A DNA stretch of 50,707 nucleotides, from contig CAYQBR010000001.1 of assembly GCA_964415735.1 (NCBI GenBank), forward strand, positions 1,748 through 52,454, written 5' to 3'. This document shows, one piece after another, positions 30,044 to 40,928 of this stretch (the stretch's first letter is position 1; each line of letters starts with the position of its first letter). Source of the stretch: an uncultured Klebsiella sp. Its GTDB lineage: Bacteria > Pseudomonadota > Gammaproteobacteria > Pseudomonadales > Pseudohongiellaceae. The translations under genes and the position numbers were made by a program. Below the pieces are notes generated by a model. It worked only from the letters and a program-made list of their open reading frames with translations. It ran no database searches and was not told where the DNA came from.

Positions 30044-30195
30044 GCTGGCTCGGTGTATTCGCAGGGGCTTCTGGGCGACGAGGCACCTGCATGGTGCCTG
30101 GCCGGAACGGGGCGCAAGGATACCGACAGTTCCGTTTCAAGTACAGCCTGATTCCCTTATACTCCGGGCACTTTCCCCGCAGCGCGACTCCCTCG

Positions 30196-32544
30196 ATGCC
30201 TCTCAGCGACGCCATGAAACGCCTTGCCCGCAGCCTTCTCAAGGGGCGTCGCCTGCCCGTGGCGCTCGGGCTCGTGCTCACGCTGCTCGTGGCCTCCCTG
30301 CAGGTGCTGCCGCCAAGCGGCATCGGCTCCCTGATCGATCGTCTCGACAATCTCCTCTACGACCAGCGCTACAACCTGATGTCGAAACCGTCCGTGAATC
30401 CCGAGCACAAGATCGTGGTGGTGGACATCGATGAGCGCAGTCTGCAGGCCGAGGGGCAGTGGCCCTGGGATCGCTTCAAGCTCGGGCAGCTGGTGGAACG
30501 ACTGGCCGAGTATGGTGTGCTGGTCACCGGCTTCGACGTGACTTTTCCCGAGCCGCAGCGCAATACCGTGCGCGACATCGTTGCCCGCAGCGACGGCCTG
30601 ACACTGGAATCAGACTTCGTCGAACGACTGCGCACACTGGAGCAGGAACTGGATGCCGACCGCTATTTCGCGCAGGCCATTGCCAATCCCCTCATGTCCG
30701 TGGTGCTCGCAGTGTCTTTCAATCCTGTGCAGTCCGTGGAATACGGGGCGCTGCCAACACCGATCGTGGGGCTCGATGCTGCCATTGCGGAGCGCGTGAC
30801 GCTGCAGGAAATGGCCGGCTACACCGCCAACATCGCCGTGCTGCAGGAAGCTGCCGCGGGGGCCGGCATCATGAATCAGCTGCCGGATGTCGATGGCATC
30901 ATCCGCCGCGTGCCTCTTGTCGTGCGCTATCGCGATCAGTTGTATCCCACCCTGGCGCTGGAAATGGCGCGGCTGTATTTCTTCGAGCAGGATTTCGAAC
31001 TGGTGACCTATCCCCTGGGGGACGTGCATCAGGTGGAAGGCATCCGCATCGGTCGCAATGCAGGACAGTACGAGCTGGCCACGGATGCAAGAGCGCAGGT
31101 GCTGGTGCCCTATGTCGGTCCGTCCGTGCTAAGCGGCAACGGTCAATATGAATACGTCTCCGCCACCGATGTGCTCAATGGTGTCGTGGACCCGGCCGTG
31201 CTCGAGAATGCCCTGGTGCTGGTGGGCACCACGGCCACGGGCATGTTCGATCTGCGCTCGACGCCACTGGAAGCGGTCTACCCCGGAGTGGAAGTGCACG
31301 CGAACATTCTCAACGGCATCCTCAATTCCTTCATCGTGCAGGAAGTCGCGGGCAACGCAGAAGGCGCTGAAAACGACATCAATGCCACGCTGGCCTCGCC
31401 CTTTCCGTACAAACCTGTGTGGGAGGAGGGCGCGATTCTCGTGATCCTGCTGGTGCTCGGTGCAGTGCTCAGCGCGGTGCTCCCGCTGCTCGGTCCGACG
31501 CTGCTTGCGGTGGCGGCACTGGTCTTGATCGGCGCGGCCGTGTGGAGCAATTTCGCGCTGTGGTCGCTCTACCGCATGGACCTGTCGCTGACCCTGATCC
31601 TGCTGCTGATCCTGACGCTGGTGGTGATCAACACGGCGTATGGCTATCTGAGCGAGCGCCTCACGCGCAAGACCATCAAGGGCATGTTCGATCAATATGT
31701 GCCACCTGCCCACATTGACGCGATGCTGCAGAATCCAGAGGCTTACAGCTTCTCCGGCGAGAGCCGGGAAATGACGGTGCTGTTCGCGGACATCCGGGAT
31801 TTCACCAGTGTCTCGGAAGCGCTGACCGCCACCGAACTCAAGCAATTGTTGAACGAGTTTTTCACGCCGGTCACCAGCATCATCTTCGAGCACAACGGCA
31901 CCGTCGACAAATACGTCGGCGACATGATCATGGCTTTCTGGGGCGCGCCCCTGGAGGACCTCGCGCATCGCAGCAATGCAGTGCATGCCGCGCTGCGGAT
32001 TCTCGATGAAGTCGAGCGACTGCGGCAGGAGTTTCCGCGCAAGGGCTTTCCCCCGATCAATATCGGCATTGGCGTGAACACCGGCATGATGAACGTGGGC
32101 GACATGGGATCGGTCTATCGTCGCGCCTATACCGTGCTTGGAGACGCCGTGAACCTGGGCTCGCGACTCGAAGGTCTGACGAAGTTCTACGGCGTGAAAC
32201 TGTTGATCGGCGAAGAGACCCATCACACGCTGGAGGGCATCGTGTGTCGCCTGATCGACAAGGTGAAGGTCAAGGGCAAGGACCATGCCGTGCGCACTTA
32301 CGAACCGCTGTGCACGACGGCCGATGCGAGCCCGCAATTGCTGGCGGAAGTGGCGCAGTATCACGCGGCGCTCGAGCAGTATTTCGCGCAGCAATGGGAC
32401 GACGCACAGCAGCGTTTCGAGTCGTTGCACGCGGCTGCACCGCACGTGCATCTCTACGAGATCTATCTGGAAAGAATCGCCAATCTGCGCACGCAGAGTC
32501 TGCCTGCCGACTGGGATGGATCCTTCCAGCATCTGAGCAAATGA
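30196..32544 (+). CDS. CHASE2 sensor domain-containing class III adenylate/guanylate cyclase
   Basis: N-terminal TM helix, periplasmic CHASE2-like region (IVVVDIDERSL...WPWDR), three TM helices, then the cyclase domain (VLFADIRDFTSVSE, GDMIMAFWGAP, GVNTGMMNVGDMGS, VLGDAVNLGSRLEG). Start 30196 or 30214. Confidence 0.88.
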   Translation: MPLSDAMKRLARSLLKGRRLPVALGLVLTLLVASLQVLPPSGIGSLIDRLDNLLYDQRYNLMSKPSVNPEHKIVVVDIDERSLQAEGQWPWDRFKLGQLVERLAEYGVLVTGFDVTFPEPQRNTVRDIVARSDGLTLESDFVERLRTLEQELDADRYFAQAIANPLMSVVLAVSFNPVQSVEYGALPTPIVGLDAAIAERVTLQEMAGYTANIAVLQEAAAGAGIMNQLPDVDGIIRRVPLVVRYRDQLYPTLALEMARLYFFEQDFELVTYPLGDVHQVEGIRIGRNAGQYELATDARAQVLVPYVGPSVLSGNGQYEYVSATDVLNGVVDPAVLENALVLVGTTATGMFDLRSTPLEAVYPGVEVHANILNGILNSFIVQEVAGNAEGAENDINATLASPFPYKPVWEEGAILVILLVLGAVLSAVLPLLGPTLLAVAALVLIGAAVWSNFALWSLYRMDLSLTLILLLILTLVVINTAYGYLSERLTRKTIKGMFDQYVPPAHIDAMLQNPEAYSFSGESREMTVLFADIRDFTSVSEALTATELKQLLNEFFTPVTSIIFEHNGTVDKYVGDMIMAFWGAPLEDLAHRSNAVHAALRILDEVERLRQEFPRKGFPPINIGIGVNTGMMNVGDMGSVYRRAYTVLGDAVNLGSRLEGLTKFYGVKLLIGEETHHTLEGIVCRLIDKVKVKGKDHAVRTYEPLCTTADASPQLLAEVAQYHAALEQYFAQQWDDAQQRFESLHAAAPHVHLYEIYLERIANLRTQSLPADWDGSFQHLSK

Positions 32545-32625: not shown

Positions 32626-32653
32626 TTGACAGAACAATTCAAGTGCGTAAAAT
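32626..32653 (+). promoter_or_regulatory. candidate sigma70 promoter for tRNA-Val/tRNA-Asp
   Basis: Consensus TTGACA (32626-32631), 16-nt spacer, TAAAAT (32648-32653), GC-rich discriminator gcgcgtc. The tRNA starts at 32673. Confidence 0.55.
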
Positions 32654-32672: not shown

Positions 32673-32748
32673 GGGTGTTTAGCTCAGTTGGTAGAGCGTC
32701 GCCCTTACAAGGCGAATGTCGGGGGTTCAAATCCCTCAACACCCACCA
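32673..32748 (+). tRNA. tRNA-Val (anticodon UAC)
   Basis: Acceptor gggtgtt/aacaccc, anticodon stem tcgcc/ggcga, loop cTTACaa, T loop ttcaaat, encoded CCA. Confidence 0.95.
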
Positions 32749-32784: not shown

Positions 32785-32861
32785 GGACCGGTAGTTCAGC
32801 CGGTTAGAATGCCGGCCTGTCACGCCGGAGGTCGCGGGTTCGAGTCCCGTCCGGTCCGCCA
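32785..32861 (+). tRNA. tRNA-Asp (anticodon GUC)
   Basis: Acceptor ggaccgg/ccggtcc, anticodon stem ccggc/gccgg, loop ctGTCac, T loop ttcgagt, encoded CCA. Confidence 0.95.
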
Positions 32862-33025
32862 CTAACCCCTCTTCAAATCAGCAATTCCCCAGCCCGTTTC
32901 AACGTCATCGCTGCACTCGAATGCACGCGTTTTCTCGTGCCAATAAAAGCGCACTTGGCACTGTTGCCTGCGTCCACTTGCTCGCGCCGGATGCTTCCTT
33001 TACTCCACTTCCAGCGCTGGCTAAG

Positions 33026-35716
33026 ATGCCGGGACTTCGAGCGCAGAGGAGCAGCGGTGTGTCGCAAACAACAATTCAAGACAAGCGCGCAACGGATGCC
33101 ACGGTCGACACCTTTCTGGTGCAGGCGCATGGCATCGCCGCGTTTGTCATGCTGCTGATGGCCGTCACCTTCGGCATTCTTGTCTCGCTGCAATTCATTC
33201 TGCCGGATCTGTTCTCCGGTCTGCTGCCGAGCTGGGGTCGCATGCGCTATGCGCACACCCAGGGCATCATGCTGGGCTGGCTCGGCAATGCCTTCCTGGC
33301 CTTTCTCTATCATGCGGTTCCCATCCTGACGGGTGCGCGGGTCACCGGGCGCAGGCTCGGTCTGGTGTTGTTCGGTCTCTGGAATTTCGTGGTGATGCTG
33401 CCGGGCTGGGCGCTGGTGCTGGCCGGTGTCAGTCAGCCACTGGAGTGGGCGGAGTTCCCCCTGCTGGTCGATGTGTTCGTGGTGCTGGCCTTCGTGCTCG
33501 CCGCCGTGCAATTCCTGCCGCCTTTCTTCCGCAAGGGGCTCACCGACCTCTACGTCTCGGGCTGGTACATCATCGGGGCCCTGGTCTTCACGCTGCTCTC
33601 CTATCCCATGGGCAACATCGTGCCCGAGTTCGTGCCGGGCGCCGCGGGAGCCGCCTTCAGCGGTCTGTGGATTCACGATGCCGTCGGGTTGTTCGTCACT
33701 CCGCTCGCGCTCGCCATTCTCTATTTCGTGATTCCCGCCAGCACCGGTCGGCCTGTCTTCAGTCATCTGCTCTCGATGCTGGGCTTCTGGGGACTGTTCT
33801 TCCTTTACCCGCTGAACGGGACACATCACTACATCTTCTCCGTGATCCCGATGGAGGCGCAGATGACGGCGATCTATGCCTCGTTCCTGCTCGGGGTGAT
33901 CGTGCTCATCGTGGTCTCCAATCTCGTGCTCTCCCAGCGTGGCAGCGGCTGGATTCCGCAGGACATCGCGCTGCGCTTCGTCTCGATGTCGGTGATCTTC
34001 TACCTCGTGGTGAGCATTCAGGGCTCGCTGCAGGCCAACATGGCACTCAATGAGCTGACGCACTTCACGGACTGGGTGATCGGGCATTCCCATCTGGCCA
34101 TGCTGGGCTTCGCCACCTTCGCCGGCATCGGCGGCATCCTGCACGCCTGGCAGCGCATTCCCCAGGCGCGCTACAACGCCCGGGCACTGGAATGGGCCTA
34201 CTGGCTGCTGACGGTTGGCATCTGGCTCATGGTCATCGACCTGTCGCTGGCCGGTCTGGTGCAGGGCGGCGCCTGGCAGAGCGGCGCGCCCTGGCTGGAA
34301 TCCCTGCGTGTGTCGCAGCCCTACTGGGTGTTCCGCTCCCTGACTGCCATTCCCATCACTGCCGGCTTCATCGCCCTGTTCGCTGGTCTGATGACGGGCC
34401 CGCGTGGCGCCGGGGCCGATGCCGTGGCGCAGAACCGGCAGCGTGTGGCGGCGGCGCGTGTGGCGCCCGTGCTGATCGAGGGCAGTGCCGATGCGCCCGC
34501 GCGGGTGCTGGGCATGTCCTATGTCGTGGCCTCGGTGGCGGGCGTGCTGTTCTTCGTGTTCTCGGTGTCTCTGCTGGGCGAGATGCCCAGGCGCCTGCTG
34601 GCGGATCAGACGAATGTGATGGCCCCGGCCAGTCCACTGCCCCTGACGCCCTCCGAGCAGCGCGGCCGTGACATCTACGCCCGCGAAGGCTGTGGCTATT
34701 GCCATACCCAGCAAGTGCGCTATGTGCCGGCCGACATCCAGCGCTACGGAGCGCCGACCCTGGCCTGGGAAGGGCGCTTCGATTTCCCGCATCTGCTGGG
34801 CACCCGGCGCATCGGGCCGGATCTGGCACGCGCCGCGAACACCCGCACCGCCGAATGGCATCTCGCCCATTTGTATGCCCCGCGAGCCGTGGTGCCCGGC
34901 TCGGTGATGCCGGCCTACCCGCAGTTCTTCGCCGGGGACCCGACGCAGCCCACCCAGGAAGCGCGTGACCTGGTGGCCTATCTGGACACGCTAGGCCGCG
35001 CCCGCGAACTGGCCTGGCCGGACGGCGACACCGCCGCCCGTGCCGTGGCGGGCGACAGCGAATGGGCGCAGATGGCGTTCTCCTCTCCAGTGCTCAATGC
35101 GCATCCGGGCAGGACACAGCCGCGCGGCAATGCGCCGGCGCTGCCCGCCACCGGGGATCTGGCGCTGGGCAAGGCCCTGTGGCAGGCCAATTGCTCCGGC
35201 TGTCACGGGGCGAACGGTGATGGAGCTGGGCAGGCGTCCGGCTGGCTGGAGCCGCCGCCCGTGAATCTCACCGCGCGGGACTACACGGGACAGCGTCTGG
35301 CCGACATTTTGTGGAACGGGGTTCACGGCACTGCCATGCCGGGCTGGCGTGACCAGCCCCTGGAAAGTCTCGCTGCCCTGGTCGCCGTGGTGCGCGACTT
35401 CGGGCCGCAGGACGCCACTGCCGCGCCCGCGCCGCAATTGCAGGAAGGCGCCCGCGTCTATCAGCAGCACTGTGCCGAGTGTCATGGCGATGCGGGCACG
35501 GGCAATGGCTTCGCGGCGGATCAGCTGCCCATCATGCCGACGGACTTCACGGGCGAGCGCCCCACGCATGCCGAGAGCGAACGGGTGCTGCGCAATGGCG
35601 TGCCCGGAACCTCCATGGCACCGTGGACGGATCGCCTGAATGACGCCGAGATCGCGGCGGTCTCTCACTTCGTGCGTCAGTTCTACGCAGGCGAGACAAC
35701 AGGAGGGGCGCGATGA
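33026..35716 (+). CDS. fused cbb3-type cytochrome c oxidase: CcoN (subunit I) + CcoO (monoheme) + CcoP-like (diheme) in one polypeptide
   Basis: CcoN ligand motifs RYAHTQG, LWIHDAVG, LYPLNGTHHY and HFTDWVIGHSHLAMLG. Then a TM helix plus the FixO-like region GRDIYAREGCGYCH...GPDLAR...WHLAHLYAPRAVVPGSVMP. Then CSGCH...GTAMPGW and CAECH...GTSMAPW. The start is uncertain: track ORF begins 32921, and ATG 33026 is chosen from the N-terminal length of known CcoN. Confidence 0.85.
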   Translation: MPGLRAQRSSGVSQTTIQDKRATDATVDTFLVQAHGIAAFVMLLMAVTFGILVSLQFILPDLFSGLLPSWGRMRYAHTQGIMLGWLGNAFLAFLYHAVPILTGARVTGRRLGLVLFGLWNFVVMLPGWALVLAGVSQPLEWAEFPLLVDVFVVLAFVLAAVQFLPPFFRKGLTDLYVSGWYIIGALVFTLLSYPMGNIVPEFVPGAAGAAFSGLWIHDAVGLFVTPLALAILYFVIPASTGRPVFSHLLSMLGFWGLFFLYPLNGTHHYIFSVIPMEAQMTAIYASFLLGVIVLIVVSNLVLSQRGSGWIPQDIALRFVSMSVIFYLVVSIQGSLQANMALNELTHFTDWVIGHSHLAMLGFATFAGIGGILHAWQRIPQARYNARALEWAYWLLTVGIWLMVIDLSLAGLVQGGAWQSGAPWLESLRVSQPYWVFRSLTAIPITAGFIALFAGLMTGPRGAGADAVAQNRQRVAAARVAPVLIEGSADAPARVLGMSYVVASVAGVLFFVFSVSLLGEMPRRLLADQTNVMAPASPLPLTPSEQRGRDIYAREGCGYCHTQQVRYVPADIQRYGAPTLAWEGRFDFPHLLGTRRIGPDLARAANTRTAEWHLAHLYAPRAVVPGSVMPAYPQFFAGDPTQPTQEARDLVAYLDTLGRARELAWPDGDTAARAVAGDSEWAQMAFSSPVLNAHPGRTQPRGNAPALPATGDLALGKALWQANCSGCHGANGDGAGQASGWLEPPPVNLTARDYTGQRLADILWNGVHGTAMPGWRDQPLESLAALVAVVRDFGPQDATAAPAPQLQEGARVYQQHCAECHGDAGTGNGFAADQLPIMPTDFTGERPTHAESERVLRNGVPGTSMAPWTDRLNDAEIAAVSHFVRQFYAGETTGGAR

Positions 35717-35901
35717 TTTCCGATGTGATCGTGGGACTCAGTGTGTTGTTCGCCGCCGGCTGGCTGGCGGCGGCCTGGCTGCGGCCGGCGCTGCGGCGGC
35801 GCATCGAGCAGCCCAAGTTCGTGTTTGCGCAGCAGATCCAGCGGTTTGACGAAGACCAGCAGGCGTCCAATTCCAGGGAGACTCCCCATGAACCCCGATA
35901 A
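35713..35901 (+). CDS. hypothetical 62-aa single-pass membrane protein (occupies a CcoQ-like position)
   Basis: ATGA overlap with the oxidase stop, one N-terminal hydrophobic helix (VIVGLSVLFAAGWLAAAWL), G/C-rich third codon positions. No recognisable family. Confidence 0.45.
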   Translation: MISDVIVGLSVLFAAGWLAAAWLRPALRRRIEQPKFVFAQQIQRFDEDQQASNSRETPHEPR

Positions 35902-36883
35902 GCAGAGTGGCAGCATCCTTTTCACCGTGCTGGCCGGCGGCGCGGCCGGTCTGGGCATCATTGCGGCGGCGCTGTGGCTGTATCGGCCCATGCCCGTGAG
36001 TCCCGGCGTGCCGCTGGAAGCCACGGCCGAATACGGCGAGCGCCTGATTCGCCACACGCCGGAAGAGATGGGCCCTGCCAACCCGGACCCTGCCATGCGC
36101 TACACCGGTTCGCATCTGGACTGCGCGTCCTGCCATCTGGACAGCGGCCGCAAGCCCGGCACGCTCTCGCTGCTGCAGACCAGCTCGCGCTATCCGCGCT
36201 TCTCCGGCCGGGACGGGGGGGAAGGGGACTTGCGTGATCGCATCCAGGGCTGCATGACCCGCAGCATGAATGGCCGGGAGCTGCCCCGCGATGGCGTGCA
36301 GATGGTGTCCATGGAGCTGTACATCAACAGCCTCTGGGCGCAGACCCAGGCCTCCAGCGAGAGCCGTGTGCAGCCGGACGAGCCGCCGGCCTTCCGCGAG
36401 CCGGATCGGGCGGCCGACATCGCGGCGGGGCAGGTGGTGTTCGAGCAGCGTTGCGCCGTGTGCCACGGCATCGACGGACTCGGCCTGCAGGCCACGAATG
36501 ACATCAAGGAAGGCTATCTGTTCCCGCCGCTGTGGGGGCCGGACAGCTACAACAACGGCGCCGGCATGAACCGGGTGCTGACGGCGGCCATGTTCATCAA
36601 GGCGCGCATGCCACTGGGGCAGCCGGATCTGACGGATGACCAGGCCTTCGATGTGTCGGCCTACATCAATTCGAAGGAGCGGCCGCAGATGGCCAATCTG
36701 GAAGAGGATTACCCGGATCGCACCACCAAGCCGGTGGACAGCCCGTACCCGCCGTACGCCGACCCATTCCCGGTGGAGCAGCACAAGTTCGGGCCGTTCG
36801 GGCCGATCCGCGAGTACTACTCCGCCCAGACCGCGGCACGCAACGCCGCGCAGAACGCGGCGGGCACTGCCGGGGGCCGCTAG
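35888..36883 (+). CDS. membrane-anchored diheme c-type cytochrome, TsdA (thiosulfate dehydrogenase)-like
   Basis: Internal ATG 35888 of track ORF 35741..36883. N-terminal helix ILFTVLAGGAAGLGIIAAALWLY, two CxxCH (CASCH, CAVCH). RIQGCMTRSMNG and PPLWGPDSYNNGAGMNR resemble TsdA/SoxA-family signatures (from memory). Confidence 0.7.
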   Translation: MNPDKQSGSILFTVLAGGAAGLGIIAAALWLYRPMPVSPGVPLEATAEYGERLIRHTPEEMGPANPDPAMRYTGSHLDCASCHLDSGRKPGTLSLLQTSSRYPRFSGRDGGEGDLRDRIQGCMTRSMNGRELPRDGVQMVSMELYINSLWAQTQASSESRVQPDEPPAFREPDRAADIAAGQVVFEQRCAVCHGIDGLGLQATNDIKEGYLFPPLWGPDSYNNGAGMNRVLTAAMFIKARMPLGQPDLTDDQAFDVSAYINSKERPQMANLEEDYPDRTTKPVDSPYPPYADPFPVEQHKFGPFGPIREYYSAQTAARNAAQNAAGTAGGR

Positions 36884-37573
36884 TCAGCCGGCCACCAGCA
36901 TCGTGTAGCCGTGCTCCTGAGCGCGCGTCGTCGCCATGACGCCTGCGGGCACCATGCGCGCGTTGACGCCGATGGAGGCCGCGAGTTCGCGGGCGATCGC
37001 ATCGACATCGCCGCCGGTGGCCGCCGCGAGGAAGGTGGAGAGATTGCGCGTGGCACGACTGCACACGGCATACTGCACGCCCCGCGCGGCATTGGAAGCC
37101 AGCGTGTGGCCCCGGCTGGGCAGGTCGACACGATCGGACATCGTGATCGGGCTGCGCGGGAAGTTCTCACCGGTCTTCGGGTCGTGATACTGCGTGTAGT
37201 CGGCCAGCACCTTCCCGTACTTCTCCCACATCGCGTCACTGTAGGCCAGCGGCGCTGCTGCGGCGCGGAAACAGATGATCATCGCGTAATCCGACTCCGC
37301 TCCCTTGTAGACATCGGTGTGGGTGGCCAGGATGTTGGCCGCGTAGTTCATGGCGTTCACACCGCCCAGGCCGGTGTAGCAATCGATGAGCGTGCGGTGT
37401 GTCCCCGGCATGTCCATCCAGGCGTCTTCGTCGTGGATGCGCGGTTCGAAGCGCTGACGCGCGGTCTGCGCGACGGCCTTGGTGGCGGCGGCTGCGGAGG
37501 TCAGTGCAGCGACGAGGCCGAGACGGCCGAGAAAGGATCGACGCCCGGACGGGGGCAGGGATTGGTCTGACAT
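36884..37573 (-). CDS. Tat-exported periplasmic protein of unknown function (possibly DsrE/COG1416-like fold)
   Basis: ATG 37573 after AGGAG. Twin-arginine signal SGRRSFLGRLGLVAALTSAAAATKAVA-Q. The mature ~185 aa carry conserved-looking Cys (YAVCSRAT) and a C-terminal MVPAGVMATTRAQEHGYTMLVAG. The fold assignment is a weak guess. Confidence 0.7.
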   Translation of the reverse strand: MSDQSLPPSGRRSFLGRLGLVAALTSAAAATKAVAQTARQRFEPRIHDEDAWMDMPGTHRTLIDCYTGLGGVNAMNYAANILATHTDVYKGAESDYAMIICFRAAAAPLAYSDAMWEKYGKVLADYTQYHDPKTGENFPRSPITMSDRVDLPSRGHTLASNAARGVQYAVCSRATRNLSTFLAAATGGDVDAIARELAASIGVNARMVPAGVMATTRAQEHGYTMLVAG

Positions 37574-38645: not shown

Positions 38646-40928
38646 ATGCCTGTTCCGCTGTTGCAGCGTCTGCTCCGCCTCTGTCTGCCGTGTCTGGTGG
38701 CCGTCCTCGGTCTCTGGCAGTCGGGCATTGCCGTGGCGCAGGACCACGTCGCGCAGTCGCCATTGTGGCGCATCCTCGCCACTCCCGTGGTCGACATGCC
38801 CGCCGTGCCGGCCCATGCCAGCCATGCCGTGCCCATCGCCCTGCATGCCGAGGTGCTGGAGTCCCTGCAGACGGGCAGTGCCGTGCCGGTGCCCGTGCAG
38901 CAGCAGGCAGGCGAAGTGCGTCACACCCCGTTGCTGATCCTGGCGCAGACCCGCCAGCTCAACGGCGACCGCAGCCTGCATGGCGAACTCGCGGGATACG
39001 GTCGACAGACCCCCTTCGTGCTGACGGCGAGTGCAGTGGATGTCTTCGCCTATGCCGAGATCGGTGCGGAGGTCTGGCAGTTGCATGTCAGCAGGAACGA
39101 AGCGGTGGGGGATTACAGCGGCTGGCTCTACCAGTCGGCCGGCCTGCCCGAAGGCGCCCTGCGACAGGACTACGTGATTCCGGATCTCGCGCATCCGGTC
39201 CCCGTGGCGCTGCCAGCACTGCCGCCTAGCACGCTGCCGCTGCGCCTTGGCAATGGGAGTGCGCAGGGCCAGGCCCAGAGCGCACGCAACGCCGGCATCA
39301 ATGCCCGCAATCTGCAGATCACCCAGTCTGTCGGCAACGGCAGTGTCCTGGCCGGGAGCACGGCCCAGATCGAAGCCAGTTTCCGCAACACCAGCAGCGA
39401 GCGACACGAGGCGCTCTCCGTCAATTTCTATTTCGCGCTGGAGAACAGCACGCTGGTCAGTGCCACCGAAGGCTGTCGCCAGGGGACGGTGGGCGGGCAA
39501 CGCGTGCTCAATTGTCCGCTGGGAGACTTCGCCCCAGGGGAAAGCAAGACGCTGCGCTACACCATCGCGACGACGGCGGCCTCCAAGCCCCGCATCATCT
39601 CCACCGCGCTGGTGGGCGAGCTGCGCCATGACGCGGTGCTGAACGTGGTCGAGGATGTGCTGCGCGACAGCGACAACAATGGCGTCAGCGACTTCAATGA
39701 GGCGCTGCTCGGTGTCGGCCAGGCCGGTATCGCCCACGCCGGCGCCTTGACCGAACCCTCGGTGATCGACGTGATGGCGCTCTATACCCCCGGCGCCGAC
39801 ACGCTGTATGGGGGCGCGGCGCAGACGCGCATCAACCAGCTCATCGCCATGGCCAACCAGATCTATGCCGACAGCGGCGTGGCCATCACCCTGCGCCCGG
39901 TGTACATGGGCCCGGTGGCCTACAGTGAGTCGGTGGACATGGACACCGCGCTGAGTGCCCTGACCAGTCGCAAGGATCCAGCCTTCGCTGCCGTGGACAG
40001 CCTGCGCGAGCGATATGGCGCCGATCTGGTGATGCTGTTCCGGCCGCAGGGAACGGAGCTGGATCGCTGCGGTCTCGCGAACCTGGGCGGCTTTCGCACG
40101 CAGGGTGACTTCACCTCTTCCGACGAGCGGCAGTTCGCGTTCTCGACCATCGCCATCGACTGCCCCGTGAGTTCCGTCGTGGCCCACGAGCTGGGGCACA
40201 ACATGGGCCTGACCCACTCCCACCGGGAGGACGGTCACGGCGGCACCTTCGACTTCGCCACCGGTTACGGCGTGGAGTCGCTCTTCACCACGGTCATGGC
40301 CTTTCCCGCCGCCTTCAACACCAGTGTGCGAATTGCGCGCTTCTCGAGCCCTGCGCGTGACTGTCTCGGTGTGCCCTGCGGGGTGGCGGCTGGTGGCACG
40401 CAGCCGCCGGCCGATGCCGTGCGCGCCCTGGATGTGGTGCGACACCAGATCGCTCGTTACTACGCCCAGCGTGTGCCGCTGCTGCCCGACAAGCCGCTCG
40501 GCACCCTGAGCGGCACTGCCACCAATGCCCGCATCGCCCTGGCGGCGAGCGTCAACAAGGGGCTCGATCATGTCTCGGTGGTGACGCCTGCCGACAGCGT
40601 CGACATCAATCTGAGCCTGAGCGTGGATTCCCGTCACAGCGGCCAGGCCGGCTCGATCTACGTGCTGGCCACCCTGGACGGCGAGCAGTTCGTGATGCTG
40701 GACGAGCAGGGCACAGCGCATGCCTGGGACGGCAGCTTCGCCGGTCTGCGCGCCTTCCGCAGCGTGTCTGCGCTGCGCGCCGTGGAATATGTGCAGATCG
40801 CCAATGCGGCCCGCCTCGGCGCCGATTTCGTCGGCCGGCGGCTGCAGATCTACATCGCCTACAGCGTGCCCGGCCAGGGGGAAGTGGTCTACACCGTCGA
40901 GCCGCTGGCGCTGGACATCAGCCGCTGA
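38646..40928 (+). CDS. secreted zinc metalloprotease, metzincin/reprolysin-like (M12B-like) with large N- and C-terminal extensions
   Basis: Signal peptide ...GIAVAQD, HELGHNMGLTHSH (HExxHxxGxxH) at about aa 515. An upstream beta-rich repeat-like domain (NCPLGDFAPGESKTLRYTIATT). 760 aa. Confidence 0.85.
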   Translation: MPVPLLQRLLRLCLPCLVAVLGLWQSGIAVAQDHVAQSPLWRILATPVVDMPAVPAHASHAVPIALHAEVLESLQTGSAVPVPVQQQAGEVRHTPLLILAQTRQLNGDRSLHGELAGYGRQTPFVLTASAVDVFAYAEIGAEVWQLHVSRNEAVGDYSGWLYQSAGLPEGALRQDYVIPDLAHPVPVALPALPPSTLPLRLGNGSAQGQAQSARNAGINARNLQITQSVGNGSVLAGSTAQIEASFRNTSSERHEALSVNFYFALENSTLVSATEGCRQGTVGGQRVLNCPLGDFAPGESKTLRYTIATTAASKPRIISTALVGELRHDAVLNVVEDVLRDSDNNGVSDFNEALLGVGQAGIAHAGALTEPSVIDVMALYTPGADTLYGGAAQTRINQLIAMANQIYADSGVAITLRPVYMGPVAYSESVDMDTALSALTSRKDPAFAAVDSLRERYGADLVMLFRPQGTELDRCGLANLGGFRTQGDFTSSDERQFAFSTIAIDCPVSSVVAHELGHNMGLTHSHREDGHGGTFDFATGYGVESLFTTVMAFPAAFNTSVRIARFSSPARDCLGVPCGVAAGGTQPPADAVRALDVVRHQIARYYAQRVPLLPDKPLGTLSGTATNARIALAASVNKGLDHVSVVTPADSVDINLSLSVDSRHSGQAGSIYVLATLDGEQFVMLDEQGTAHAWDGSFAGLRAFRSVSALRAVEYVQIANAARLGADFVGRRLQIYIAYSVPGQGEVVYTVEPLALDISR

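Follow-up and report, generated by a model that had tools for sequence, protein, structure and literature searches.

The stretch of DNA analysed here (the window, 50,707 nucleotides) comes from an uncultured bacterium deposited as Klebsiella sp. and placed by GTDB in the Pseudohongiellaceae (contig CAYQBR010000001.1 of assembly GCA_964415735.1). The gene under study lies at 33026-35716 on the plus strand and encodes a cbb3-type (C-family) haem-copper oxidase in which CcoN, CcoO and a CcoP-like dihaem part form a single polypeptide. As judged from the overlaps between reading frames, it is the first gene of a translationally coupled operon for the oxidase, a protein of 62 residues and a homologue of the thiosulfate dehydrogenase TsdA. 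The features of the locus are listed below with the evidence for each in parentheses; residues are numbered from the ATG at 33026 unless stated otherwise.

33026-35716, plus strand: single-chain cbb3-type (C-family) haem-copper oxidase, 896 residues, CcoN + CcoO + CcoP-like (open reading frame, Pfam, PDB matches, alignment)
33098-34405, plus strand: CcoN catalytic domain, residues ~25-460, with 12 transmembrane (TM) helices (alignment to 3mk7_A, AlphaFold2, Foldseek)
34406-34492, plus strand: variable Arg-rich linker between TM12 and TM13, residues ~461-489, the N/O fusion junction (low conservation; predicted local distance difference test score, pLDDT)
34493-35005, plus strand: TM helix 13 (490-522) and CcoO monohaem c domain (C556-x-x-C559-H560, Met628) (FixO, 3mk7_B, hydropathy, AlphaFold2)
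35006-35161, plus strand: segment connecting CcoO to the dihaem part, residues ~661-712, the O/P fusion junction (conserved; no TM helix)
35162-35695, plus strand: CcoP-like dihaem domain (C723-x-x-C726-H727/Met771; C816-x-x-C819-H820/Met864) (two Cytochrome_CBB3 domains, TIGR00782, CcoP chains in the PDB)
35713-35901, plus strand: small protein of 62 residues with one TM helix and the motif 'R..IE.PK..F..Q' (open reading frame, gene calls, tblastn, alignment)
35888-36883, plus strand: membrane-anchored TsdA homologue (dihaem thiosulfate dehydrogenase), 331 residues (PDB matches, Pfam, alignment, synteny)
36884-37573, minus strand: periplasmic protein of 229 residues with a twin-arginine translocation (Tat) signal (RRSFLG) and a putative DsrE-like fold (translation; names given by the Joint Genome Institute, JGI; AlphaFold2; Foldseek)

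The open frame extends over 32921-35716 (+) and in its longest form encodes 931 residues. The ATG at 33026, which gives 896 residues, agrees with the homologues found in the protein search (the nearest, P0001, also has 896 residues, with 95% identity at 100% coverage). An open reading frame of 665 residues at 32873-34870 (-) runs antisense to the oxidase gene; it is unsupported and looks like a shadow frame of G+C-rich coding DNA.

Domains were assigned using Pfam in the 931-residue numbering. COX1 covers residues 69-476 (191.7 bits against a gathering score of 34.8) and FixO residues 563-672 (123.8 bits against 29.6, E = 9.5e-36); two Cytochrome_CBB3/Cytochrom_C domains, also above the gathering score, reach residue 920. 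The closest solved structures by sequence are CcoN (3mk7_A, 4e-37) and CcoO (3mk7_B, 3e-27); comparison of the whole chain with the PDB gives a weak match to CcoP (9g83_v, 5e-6). The dihaem tail matches the ccoP model TIGR00782 at 6.8e-11 over profile positions 110-281, with both domains covered, and CcoP chains in the PDB at 5.9e-8 (9g83_v) and 1e-4 (3mk7_C); other class-I cytochromes match it too. Its identification as a fused TsdB was considered and is unsupported, as no match to the TsdB half of 5lo9 was obtained up to E = 1.

The CcoO part is of a short type and ends with 'AYLDTLGR'. Truncation of this domain was rejected, since the N-O fusions P0141, P0181 and P0206 end at the same 'AYLxTLGR' motif. 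The segment that follows has the consensus 'RELAWPEGD..AARAAA.DD.WAQMSF.AP.LNAHPARTRPRG' in the family alignment, which holds 35 sequences with 63-95% identity to the window protein.

Metal ligands were assigned by alignment to CcoN of Pseudomonas stutzeri (3mk7_A), and all of them are present and invariant in the 35 sequences. H77 and H356 correspond to the haem b ligands H60 and H347, H354 to the haem b3 ligand H345, and H217, H267 and H268 to the CuB ligands H207, H257 and H258. The cross-link tyrosine of helix 7 (P. stutzeri Y251) is Y261, likewise at an invariant position, and a covalent bond between Y261 and a CuB histidine is predicted. T225, Y233, S250 and Y326 (P. stutzeri T215, Y223, S240 and Y317) are invariant as well; T215, Y223, S240, H243 and Y317 are the positions that we take to form the K-channel analogue (Buschmann 2010, Hemp 2007). 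In the c-type part, the three CxxCH motifs and the methionine ligands M628, M771 and M864 are invariant.

The AlphaFold2 model of the oxidase (mean pLDDT 72.8) has 12 helices up to residue 456, then the Arg-rich linker at low confidence (pLDDT < 50 at 478-491) and a long helix at 490-532. The linker is presumably cytoplasmic. A TM anchor of the CcoP-like part itself was not found, there being no hydrophobic segment after residue 522 in the hydropathy profile and no helix of TM length after residue 532 in the model. Hydropathy and AlphaFold2 both support 13 helices, and with this 12 + 1 topology the c-haems all lie beyond the cell membrane, in the periplasm. A Foldseek search with the N-domain returned cbb3 CcoN chains as nearest (6xkw_n, 9g6b_A, 3mk7; TM-score 0.84-0.86, E = 4e-18), with NorB of the cytochrome c-dependent nitric oxide (NO) reductase (cNOR; E = 5e-10) and subunit I of the A- and B-families well behind.

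The initial annotation had read the locus as a single uninterrupted open reading frame at 33026-35716 for one polypeptide of CcoN, CcoO and a CcoP-like dihaem part, with 12 + 1 TM helices and a set of quoted haem and CuB motifs. Every motif was recovered in the translation, and the Pfam search, the PDB matches, the ligand alignment, AlphaFold2 and Foldseek agree with that reading. The full ligand set, the cross-link tyrosine, four of the five K-channel-analogue residues, the fold and the strong conservation together make it very probable, as far as sequence and model can tell, that the chain is a genuine O2-reducing and proton-translocating cbb3-type oxidase.

The fusion was followed through related genomes. 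A scan with one genome per species gave 410 matches; 80 loci (species-level genomes) were kept, and all of them match as fused chains. In 70 of the 80, a single tblastn alignment spans at least 850 of the 896 residues; the other ten are attributed to contig ends or N-terminal variation. Neither junction showed a stop or a frameshift in these relatives. The protein search added more than 120 clusters (90% identity) of 865-899 residues with the same four Pfam domains. The fused chain is also encoded in complete long-read chromosomes, several of them among the 80 (e.g. OZ244938.1). An assembly or sequencing artefact, by which a lost stop codon or a frameshift had joined separate genes, was rejected on the 70 full-length single alignments and the more than 120 clusters, and the long-read chromosome speaks against it too. 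It has next to no likelihood, even though a representative, P0124, appears frameshifted past the N domain and a stop separates N from O-P in another sequence, L087.

L087, a 2.2-kb metagenome contig with 63% identity (159-2261), has this in-frame stop exactly at the N/O boundary, and its CcoN reading frame closes 3 nt before the start of a CcoO-dihaem gene in the same frame; a sequencing error is possible. It is presumed to represent the state before fusion. The stop marks the junction as an ordinary gene boundary and thus the fusion as an evolutionary event. In the search of representatives, three-part chains occupy several clusters at 50% identity (P0121, P0125, P0128 and possibly the longer P0137), and N-O fusions and split forms are present too.

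The suggestion in the initial annotation that the architecture is unusual did not hold. With more than 120 clusters and no fewer than 80 species-level genomes, the fusion is common; it was described in 2013, when the three cbb3 subunits of Nitrospina gracilis were found fused in one gene (Luecker et al., 2013; PMC3578206). That protein, the cbb3-type terminal oxidase reported for this aerobe, has 954 residues, 13 predicted TM helices, 1+2 haem c sites and an unusual change of Trp203 to Gly (PMC3578206). The fusion was mentioned again in 2024 (PMC10839748), and in Nitrospira marina a cbb3 oxidase that is called highly similar to that of N. gracilis rose 3.6-fold in abundance at low O2 (PMC8115632). 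A literature search covering chiefly openly accessible papers yielded no report of a purified single-chain cbb3 enzyme.

In two of the related chains, P0125 (841 residues) and P0159 (473 residues), both at about 40% identity, the histidines that bind haem b/b3 and CuB are gone (e.g. 'CWQDAVG', 'SRSGG', 'SARSQ'). P0125 retains all three CxxCH motifs and may be a 'pseudo-oxidase' that serves only as a membrane-anchored trihaem cytochrome. Upstream of its gene are a gene for a sulfite-oxidase-like molybdoenzyme (Oxidored_molyb + Mo-co_dimer) and an open reading frame of 129 residues, another link to sulfur.

The initial annotation, correct about the identity of the protein and mistaken about its rarity, ended at the oxidase stop codon and missed the operon beyond it. 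The ATG of the 62-residue protein overlaps that stop (ATGA), and the start of tsdA overlaps the end of the small open reading frame by 14 nt; co-translation of the three genes is implied by these overlaps. The small gene occupies the position of ccoQ in ccoNOQP. A gene of 60-65 codons is called at the same place in the related loci L001-L005. Its assignment as CcoQ/FixQ or CcoS was tried and dropped, as no Pfam or NCBIfam match was obtained even at E = 10; the positional analogy remains.

The TsdA homologue matches TsdBA (5lo9_A, 1e-38) and the TsdA of Allochromatium vinosum (4wq7_A, 4e-34) in the PDB and contains the Pfam domains SoxA-TsdA_cyt-c and cytochrome c. Its motif 'RIQGCMTRSMNGR' aligns with 'RIGDCFERSLNGR' of A. 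vinosum, which holds the haem-ligating Cys96. The equivalents of A. vinosum H53, R82, R92, C96, S100, H164 and M209 are invariant in all 78 TsdA orthologues, and an N-terminal hydrophobic helix, taken as an anchor, is found in 77 of them. The catalytic residues of TsdA are Arg109, Arg119, Cys123 and Ser127 in precursor numbering (PMC4423706). The invariant positions thus take in the His/Cys active haem, the Arg-Arg-Ser pocket and the His/Met ligands of haem 2. From this conservation we infer that the window homologue would convert thiosulfate to tetrathionate.

The order of oxidase, small TM protein and anchored dihaem cytochrome parallels ccoN-O-Q-P, and the second domain of the TsdA homologue weakly matches CcoP (3mk7_C, 1.6e-5). 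Both observations would also fit a TsdA homologue without thiosulfate activity, recruited as a membrane-anchored dihaem electron-entry subunit in place of CcoP. We consider this improbable: a haem with His/Cys ligation is ill suited to simple electron transfer, and a putative DsrE-like protein of a sulfur family is conserved nearby. The haem-ligating Cys, the thiosulfate-binding Arg/Arg pair and the TsdA-specific Ser, whose roles have been described (PMC4423706), are moreover invariant in 78/78 orthologues. Under the preferred assignment as an active TsdA, the same gene order fits a place for TsdA where CcoP usually sits on the complex.

The C-terminal region of the TsdA homologue (residues ~270-315) forms, after the TsdA core, a conserved tail rich in Pro and aromatic residues, 'DYPDR..KP.DSPYPPY.DPFP..QH.FGPF.PI', which in the alignment to 5lo9 is shared with the C-terminus of TsdBA from Marichromatium purpuratum. 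This tail could be a docking element.

The DsrE-like gene is convergent with tsdA in the window and abuts its stop codon. Many relatives of its product are named 'intracellular sulfur oxidation DsrE/DsrF family protein' by JGI. The AlphaFold2 model is confident (pLDDT 87.6), and the best Foldseek matches, 1l1s and 2pd2, which we take to be DsrE-family folds, have a probability of 1.0 and a TM-score of 0.70-0.74 at a weak E of 3e-3. Cys171 is invariant in the family and sits in the model where a strand ends and a helix begins. No Pfam match was obtained even at E = 10, and support for the DsrE-like assignment comes from the fold and the JGI names. The protein would provide the module with a second link to sulfur chemistry.

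Conservation of the downstream genes was counted in the 73 loci that continue for at least 1.2 kb downstream and that of the DsrE-like gene in all 80. tsdA follows directly on the same strand in 73/73 loci, and the small open reading frame was detected by tblastn in 57 of these. The DsrE-like gene is adjacent in 64/80 loci, convergent and downstream in 41 and immediately upstream on the same strand in 23. Genes outside these four vary between loci, according to the gene tables for five of the relatives. Most carriers belong to the Gammaproteobacteria (Woeseiaceae, Pseudohongiellaceae, GTDB 'Pseudomonadales' and SAR86); the others are Acidobacteriota and one metagenome-assembled genome of Acidimicrobiia, at 57-63% identity. 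This spread across phyla suggests horizontal transfer of the module. No paper on a linkage between TsdA and a cbb3 oxidase was found in the literature search, again chiefly of openly accessible papers: the fusion architecture is already known, and the TsdA/small-subunit/DsrE-like context is without a description that we could find.

The proposal that electrons flow from TsdA into the fused oxidase is based on the strictly kept gene order, the overlaps between the genes and the conservation of the catalytic residues, and has a slightly better than even chance. The competing explanation is a general-purpose terminal oxidase of high affinity that draws its electrons from the bc1 complex through soluble or membrane cytochromes c, with TsdA as one of several donors or merely co-located. 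The cytochrome c pool is the normal source of electrons for cbb3 oxidases, soluble cytochromes could bind at the CcoP-like dihaem domain, and the N. gracilis-type fusion P0128 is without a tsdA neighbour, the fused enzyme being the reported cbb3-type terminal oxidase of N. gracilis (PMC3578206). Linkage to tsdA in 73/73 loci over Gammaproteobacteria, Acidobacteriota and Acidimicrobiia, despite varying outer flanks, argues the other way, as do the co-translation implied by the overlapping genes and the anchor of TsdA itself (77/78), which suits a stationary partner better than one that diffuses. On balance the general-purpose oxidase is unlikely, though it has to be reckoned with.

We consider it probable, on the evidence of sequence, that a working single-chain cbb3 oxidase and its operon with TsdA constitute a thiosulfate-to-oxygen respiratory module. 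The tetrathionate/thiosulfate couple lies near +0.2 V, too positive for the reduction of quinone; electrons would thus enter at the level of cytochrome c, with a dedicated oxidase as the only energy-conserving outlet. In the proposed mechanism, the His/Cys haem of TsdA would be the site where two thiosulfate are oxidized to tetrathionate, and the two electrons would pass from haem 2 of TsdA to the dihaem tail of the oxidase and on to the CcoO haem. From there they would move on to haem b and then to the b3-CuB site for the reduction of O2 to water. Protons would be taken from the cytoplasm through the K-channel analogue, and a proton-motive force would be generated without bc1 or soluble cytochromes. 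Within this scheme the 62-residue protein could be a CcoQ-like structural subunit, and the invariant Cys171 might allow the DsrE-like protein to bind a sulfur species or hand it on; both roles are speculative.

Taken further, the four genes might form a self-contained thiosulfate:oxygen oxidoreductase in which an anchored TsdA is docked on the oxidase and stabilized by the 62-residue subunit, with five c-haems and no bc1 or diffusible carrier. Handling of the product, tetrathionate or thiosulfonate, would fall to the periplasmic DsrE-like protein, and the module would have spread, apparently by horizontal transfer, in abundant and largely heterotrophic marine and soil groups (Woeseiaceae, Pseudohongiellaceae, SAR86 and Acidobacteriota). 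This complete picture is tentative, with somewhat less than an even chance of being right.

Several observations weigh against the proposed module. The NCBIfam equivalog cut-offs are far from reached: ccoN (TIGR00780) scores 163 against 583.15 bits, ccoO (TIGR00781) 116 against 201 bits and ccoP (TIGR00782) 42 against 180 bits. Three canonical residues are changed, W203, beside CuB, to G213 (in 'SGLWIHD'), H243, a position of the K-channel-analogue list, to G253 and E323 to Q332, all of them invariant in the family. Confidence in the AlphaFold2 model is low for the CcoO domain (pLDDT < 50 at 555-626). ccoGHIS genes were found neither in the window, as the initial annotation had already stated, nor in the gene tables of the five related loci. 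Gene adjacency alone is no proof of direct electron transfer, TsdA is reversible and acts as a tetrathionate reductase in Campylobacter (PMC5146829), and the occurrence of a Nitrospina/Nitrospira-type fusion without tsdA makes the fusion itself independent of TsdA.

The divergence at W203, H243 and E323 and the equivalog scores would also suit a chain whose main task is not O2 reduction, that is, an NO reductase, a non-pumping O2 scavenger or a partner in tetrathionate reduction; NorB of cNOR is a structural neighbour in Foldseek, and TsdA enzymes are bidirectional (PMC5146829). This is highly improbable. The cross-link tyrosine and four of the five K-channel-analogue residues are conserved and invariant, and in Foldseek the cbb3 chains stand eight orders of magnitude ahead of NorB. 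A Glu at His+4 serves as an FeB ligand in cNOR, and the corresponding residue here is G221. NO reductase was rejected on these four grounds. Glu323 is a residue that we take to lie near the proximal His of haem b3; its replacement by Gln was rejected as a special feature, because other non-canonical C-family relatives, including the Nitrospina-type chain, have Gln too, which makes it a clade mark and not an oddity. As far as the alignments go, the W203 and E323 replacements are the mark of a subfamily and do not exclude the chain from the C-family.

The fused oxidase as an architecture carries little weight, being known and common; its conserved pairing with TsdA would weigh more. If the proposal is true, the hard-wired TsdA-oxidase operon offers a testable answer to the question of which terminal oxidase takes the electrons of TsdA, and bears on the wide occurrence of tsdA in bacteria living on organic carbon and on whether this thiosulfate oxidation conserves energy. 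It would point to a widespread and unrecognized thiosulfate-energy route in organic-carbon feeders of oxic water and sediment. The fused ccoNOP-tsdA pair, whose genes are currently labelled 'cbb3-type cytochrome c oxidase subunit I', 'c-type cytochrome' and 'hypothetical protein', could then be used as a marker for thiosulfate-oxidizing potential in genomes of Woeseiaceae, Pseudohongiellaceae, SAR86 and Acidobacteriota. For expression and structure work, too, a single-chain cbb3 oxidase would be convenient.

Immediately upstream of the operon lie tRNA-Val(TAC) at 32673-32748 (+) and tRNA-Asp(GTC) at 32785-32861 (+), and a promoter-like site at 32626-32653 ahead of both matches the sigma-70 consensus at 11 of 12 positions. 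The G+C content is about 0.58-0.64 at the left of the window and about 0.66-0.69 from 34 kb on. The tRNA neighbours, the rise in G+C and the spread across phyla could together be the mark of insertion beside tRNA genes. Just upstream, at 30091-32544 (+), a protein of 817 residues with a CHASE2 sensor domain fused to an adenylate/guanylate cyclase is encoded. It was dropped as a candidate regulator of the operon; its absence from the gene tables of the five related loci indicates that it is probably unrelated to the oxidase operon. Further downstream, a gene at 38646-40928 (+) encodes a protein of 760 residues with an M12B/reprolysin-like zinc metallopeptidase domain, a family known mainly from eukaryotes, among housekeeping neighbours (NAD kinase, rhomboid, DUF2797 and the aminopeptidase N gene PepN).

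Compared with known systems, the window chain shares with the N. gracilis-type fusion a single gene for subunits I, II and III, 13 TM helices, 1+2 haem c sites and the replacement of Trp203 by Gly in the pattern G-L-aromatic-I-H (GLWIH in the window, HGLFIHY in P0128). The Nitrospina-like P0128 also has Gln at the position of P. stutzeri E323. It is only about 34% identical to the window chain, however, and has neither a tsdA nor a DsrE-like neighbour, its gene being followed by an open reading frame of 98 residues and a transketolase gene; the TsdA link therefore belongs to the window clade. Ser202, Trp205 and Asp208 of this clade stand against His202, Tyr205 and Tyr208 in the Nitrospina type. 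The hosts differ as well: the window clade is found in Gammaproteobacteria and Acidobacteriota, lineages that are largely heterotrophic, and the Nitrospina type in nitrite oxidizers.

With the canonical CcoNOQP oxidases (P. stutzeri 3MK7, Rhodobacter capsulatus 6XKW) the window enzyme has in common the CcoN fold, the metal ligands, the cross-link tyrosine, four of the five K-channel-analogue residues, the CxxCH and Met of CcoO, a CcoP-like dihaem c domain and a small one-TM gene at the ccoQ position. It differs in being one chain instead of three, in the CcoP-like part without its own TM anchor, in the short CcoO, in the replacement of W203, H243 and E323 and in the lack of adjacent ccoGHIS; its CcoN is about 25% identical. 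The best NCBIfam matches are NF011053 (bifunctional cbb3 subunit I/II, 5.3e-84) and NF011054 (subunit II/cytochrome c, 2.6e-46), with scores below the cut-offs (283 against 1080 bits and 158 against 447 bits, respectively). These two models catalogue partial N-O and O-cytochrome c fusions, both of which are joined in the window chain, and the representatives of the N-O fusion end at the same point as its CcoO part.

The TsdA homologue resembles A. vinosum TsdA (4WQ7) and M. purpuratum TsdBA (5LO9) in its dihaem fold family, the His/Cys haem and the Arg-Arg-Ser pocket. It differs from both in its N-terminal membrane anchor, and an Arg instead of Lys precedes the haem-2 Met in 73 of the 78 sequences of the window clade. 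In either system the electrons probably go to a dihaem cytochrome c; the acceptor proposed here is the dihaem tail of the oxidase and not TsdB.

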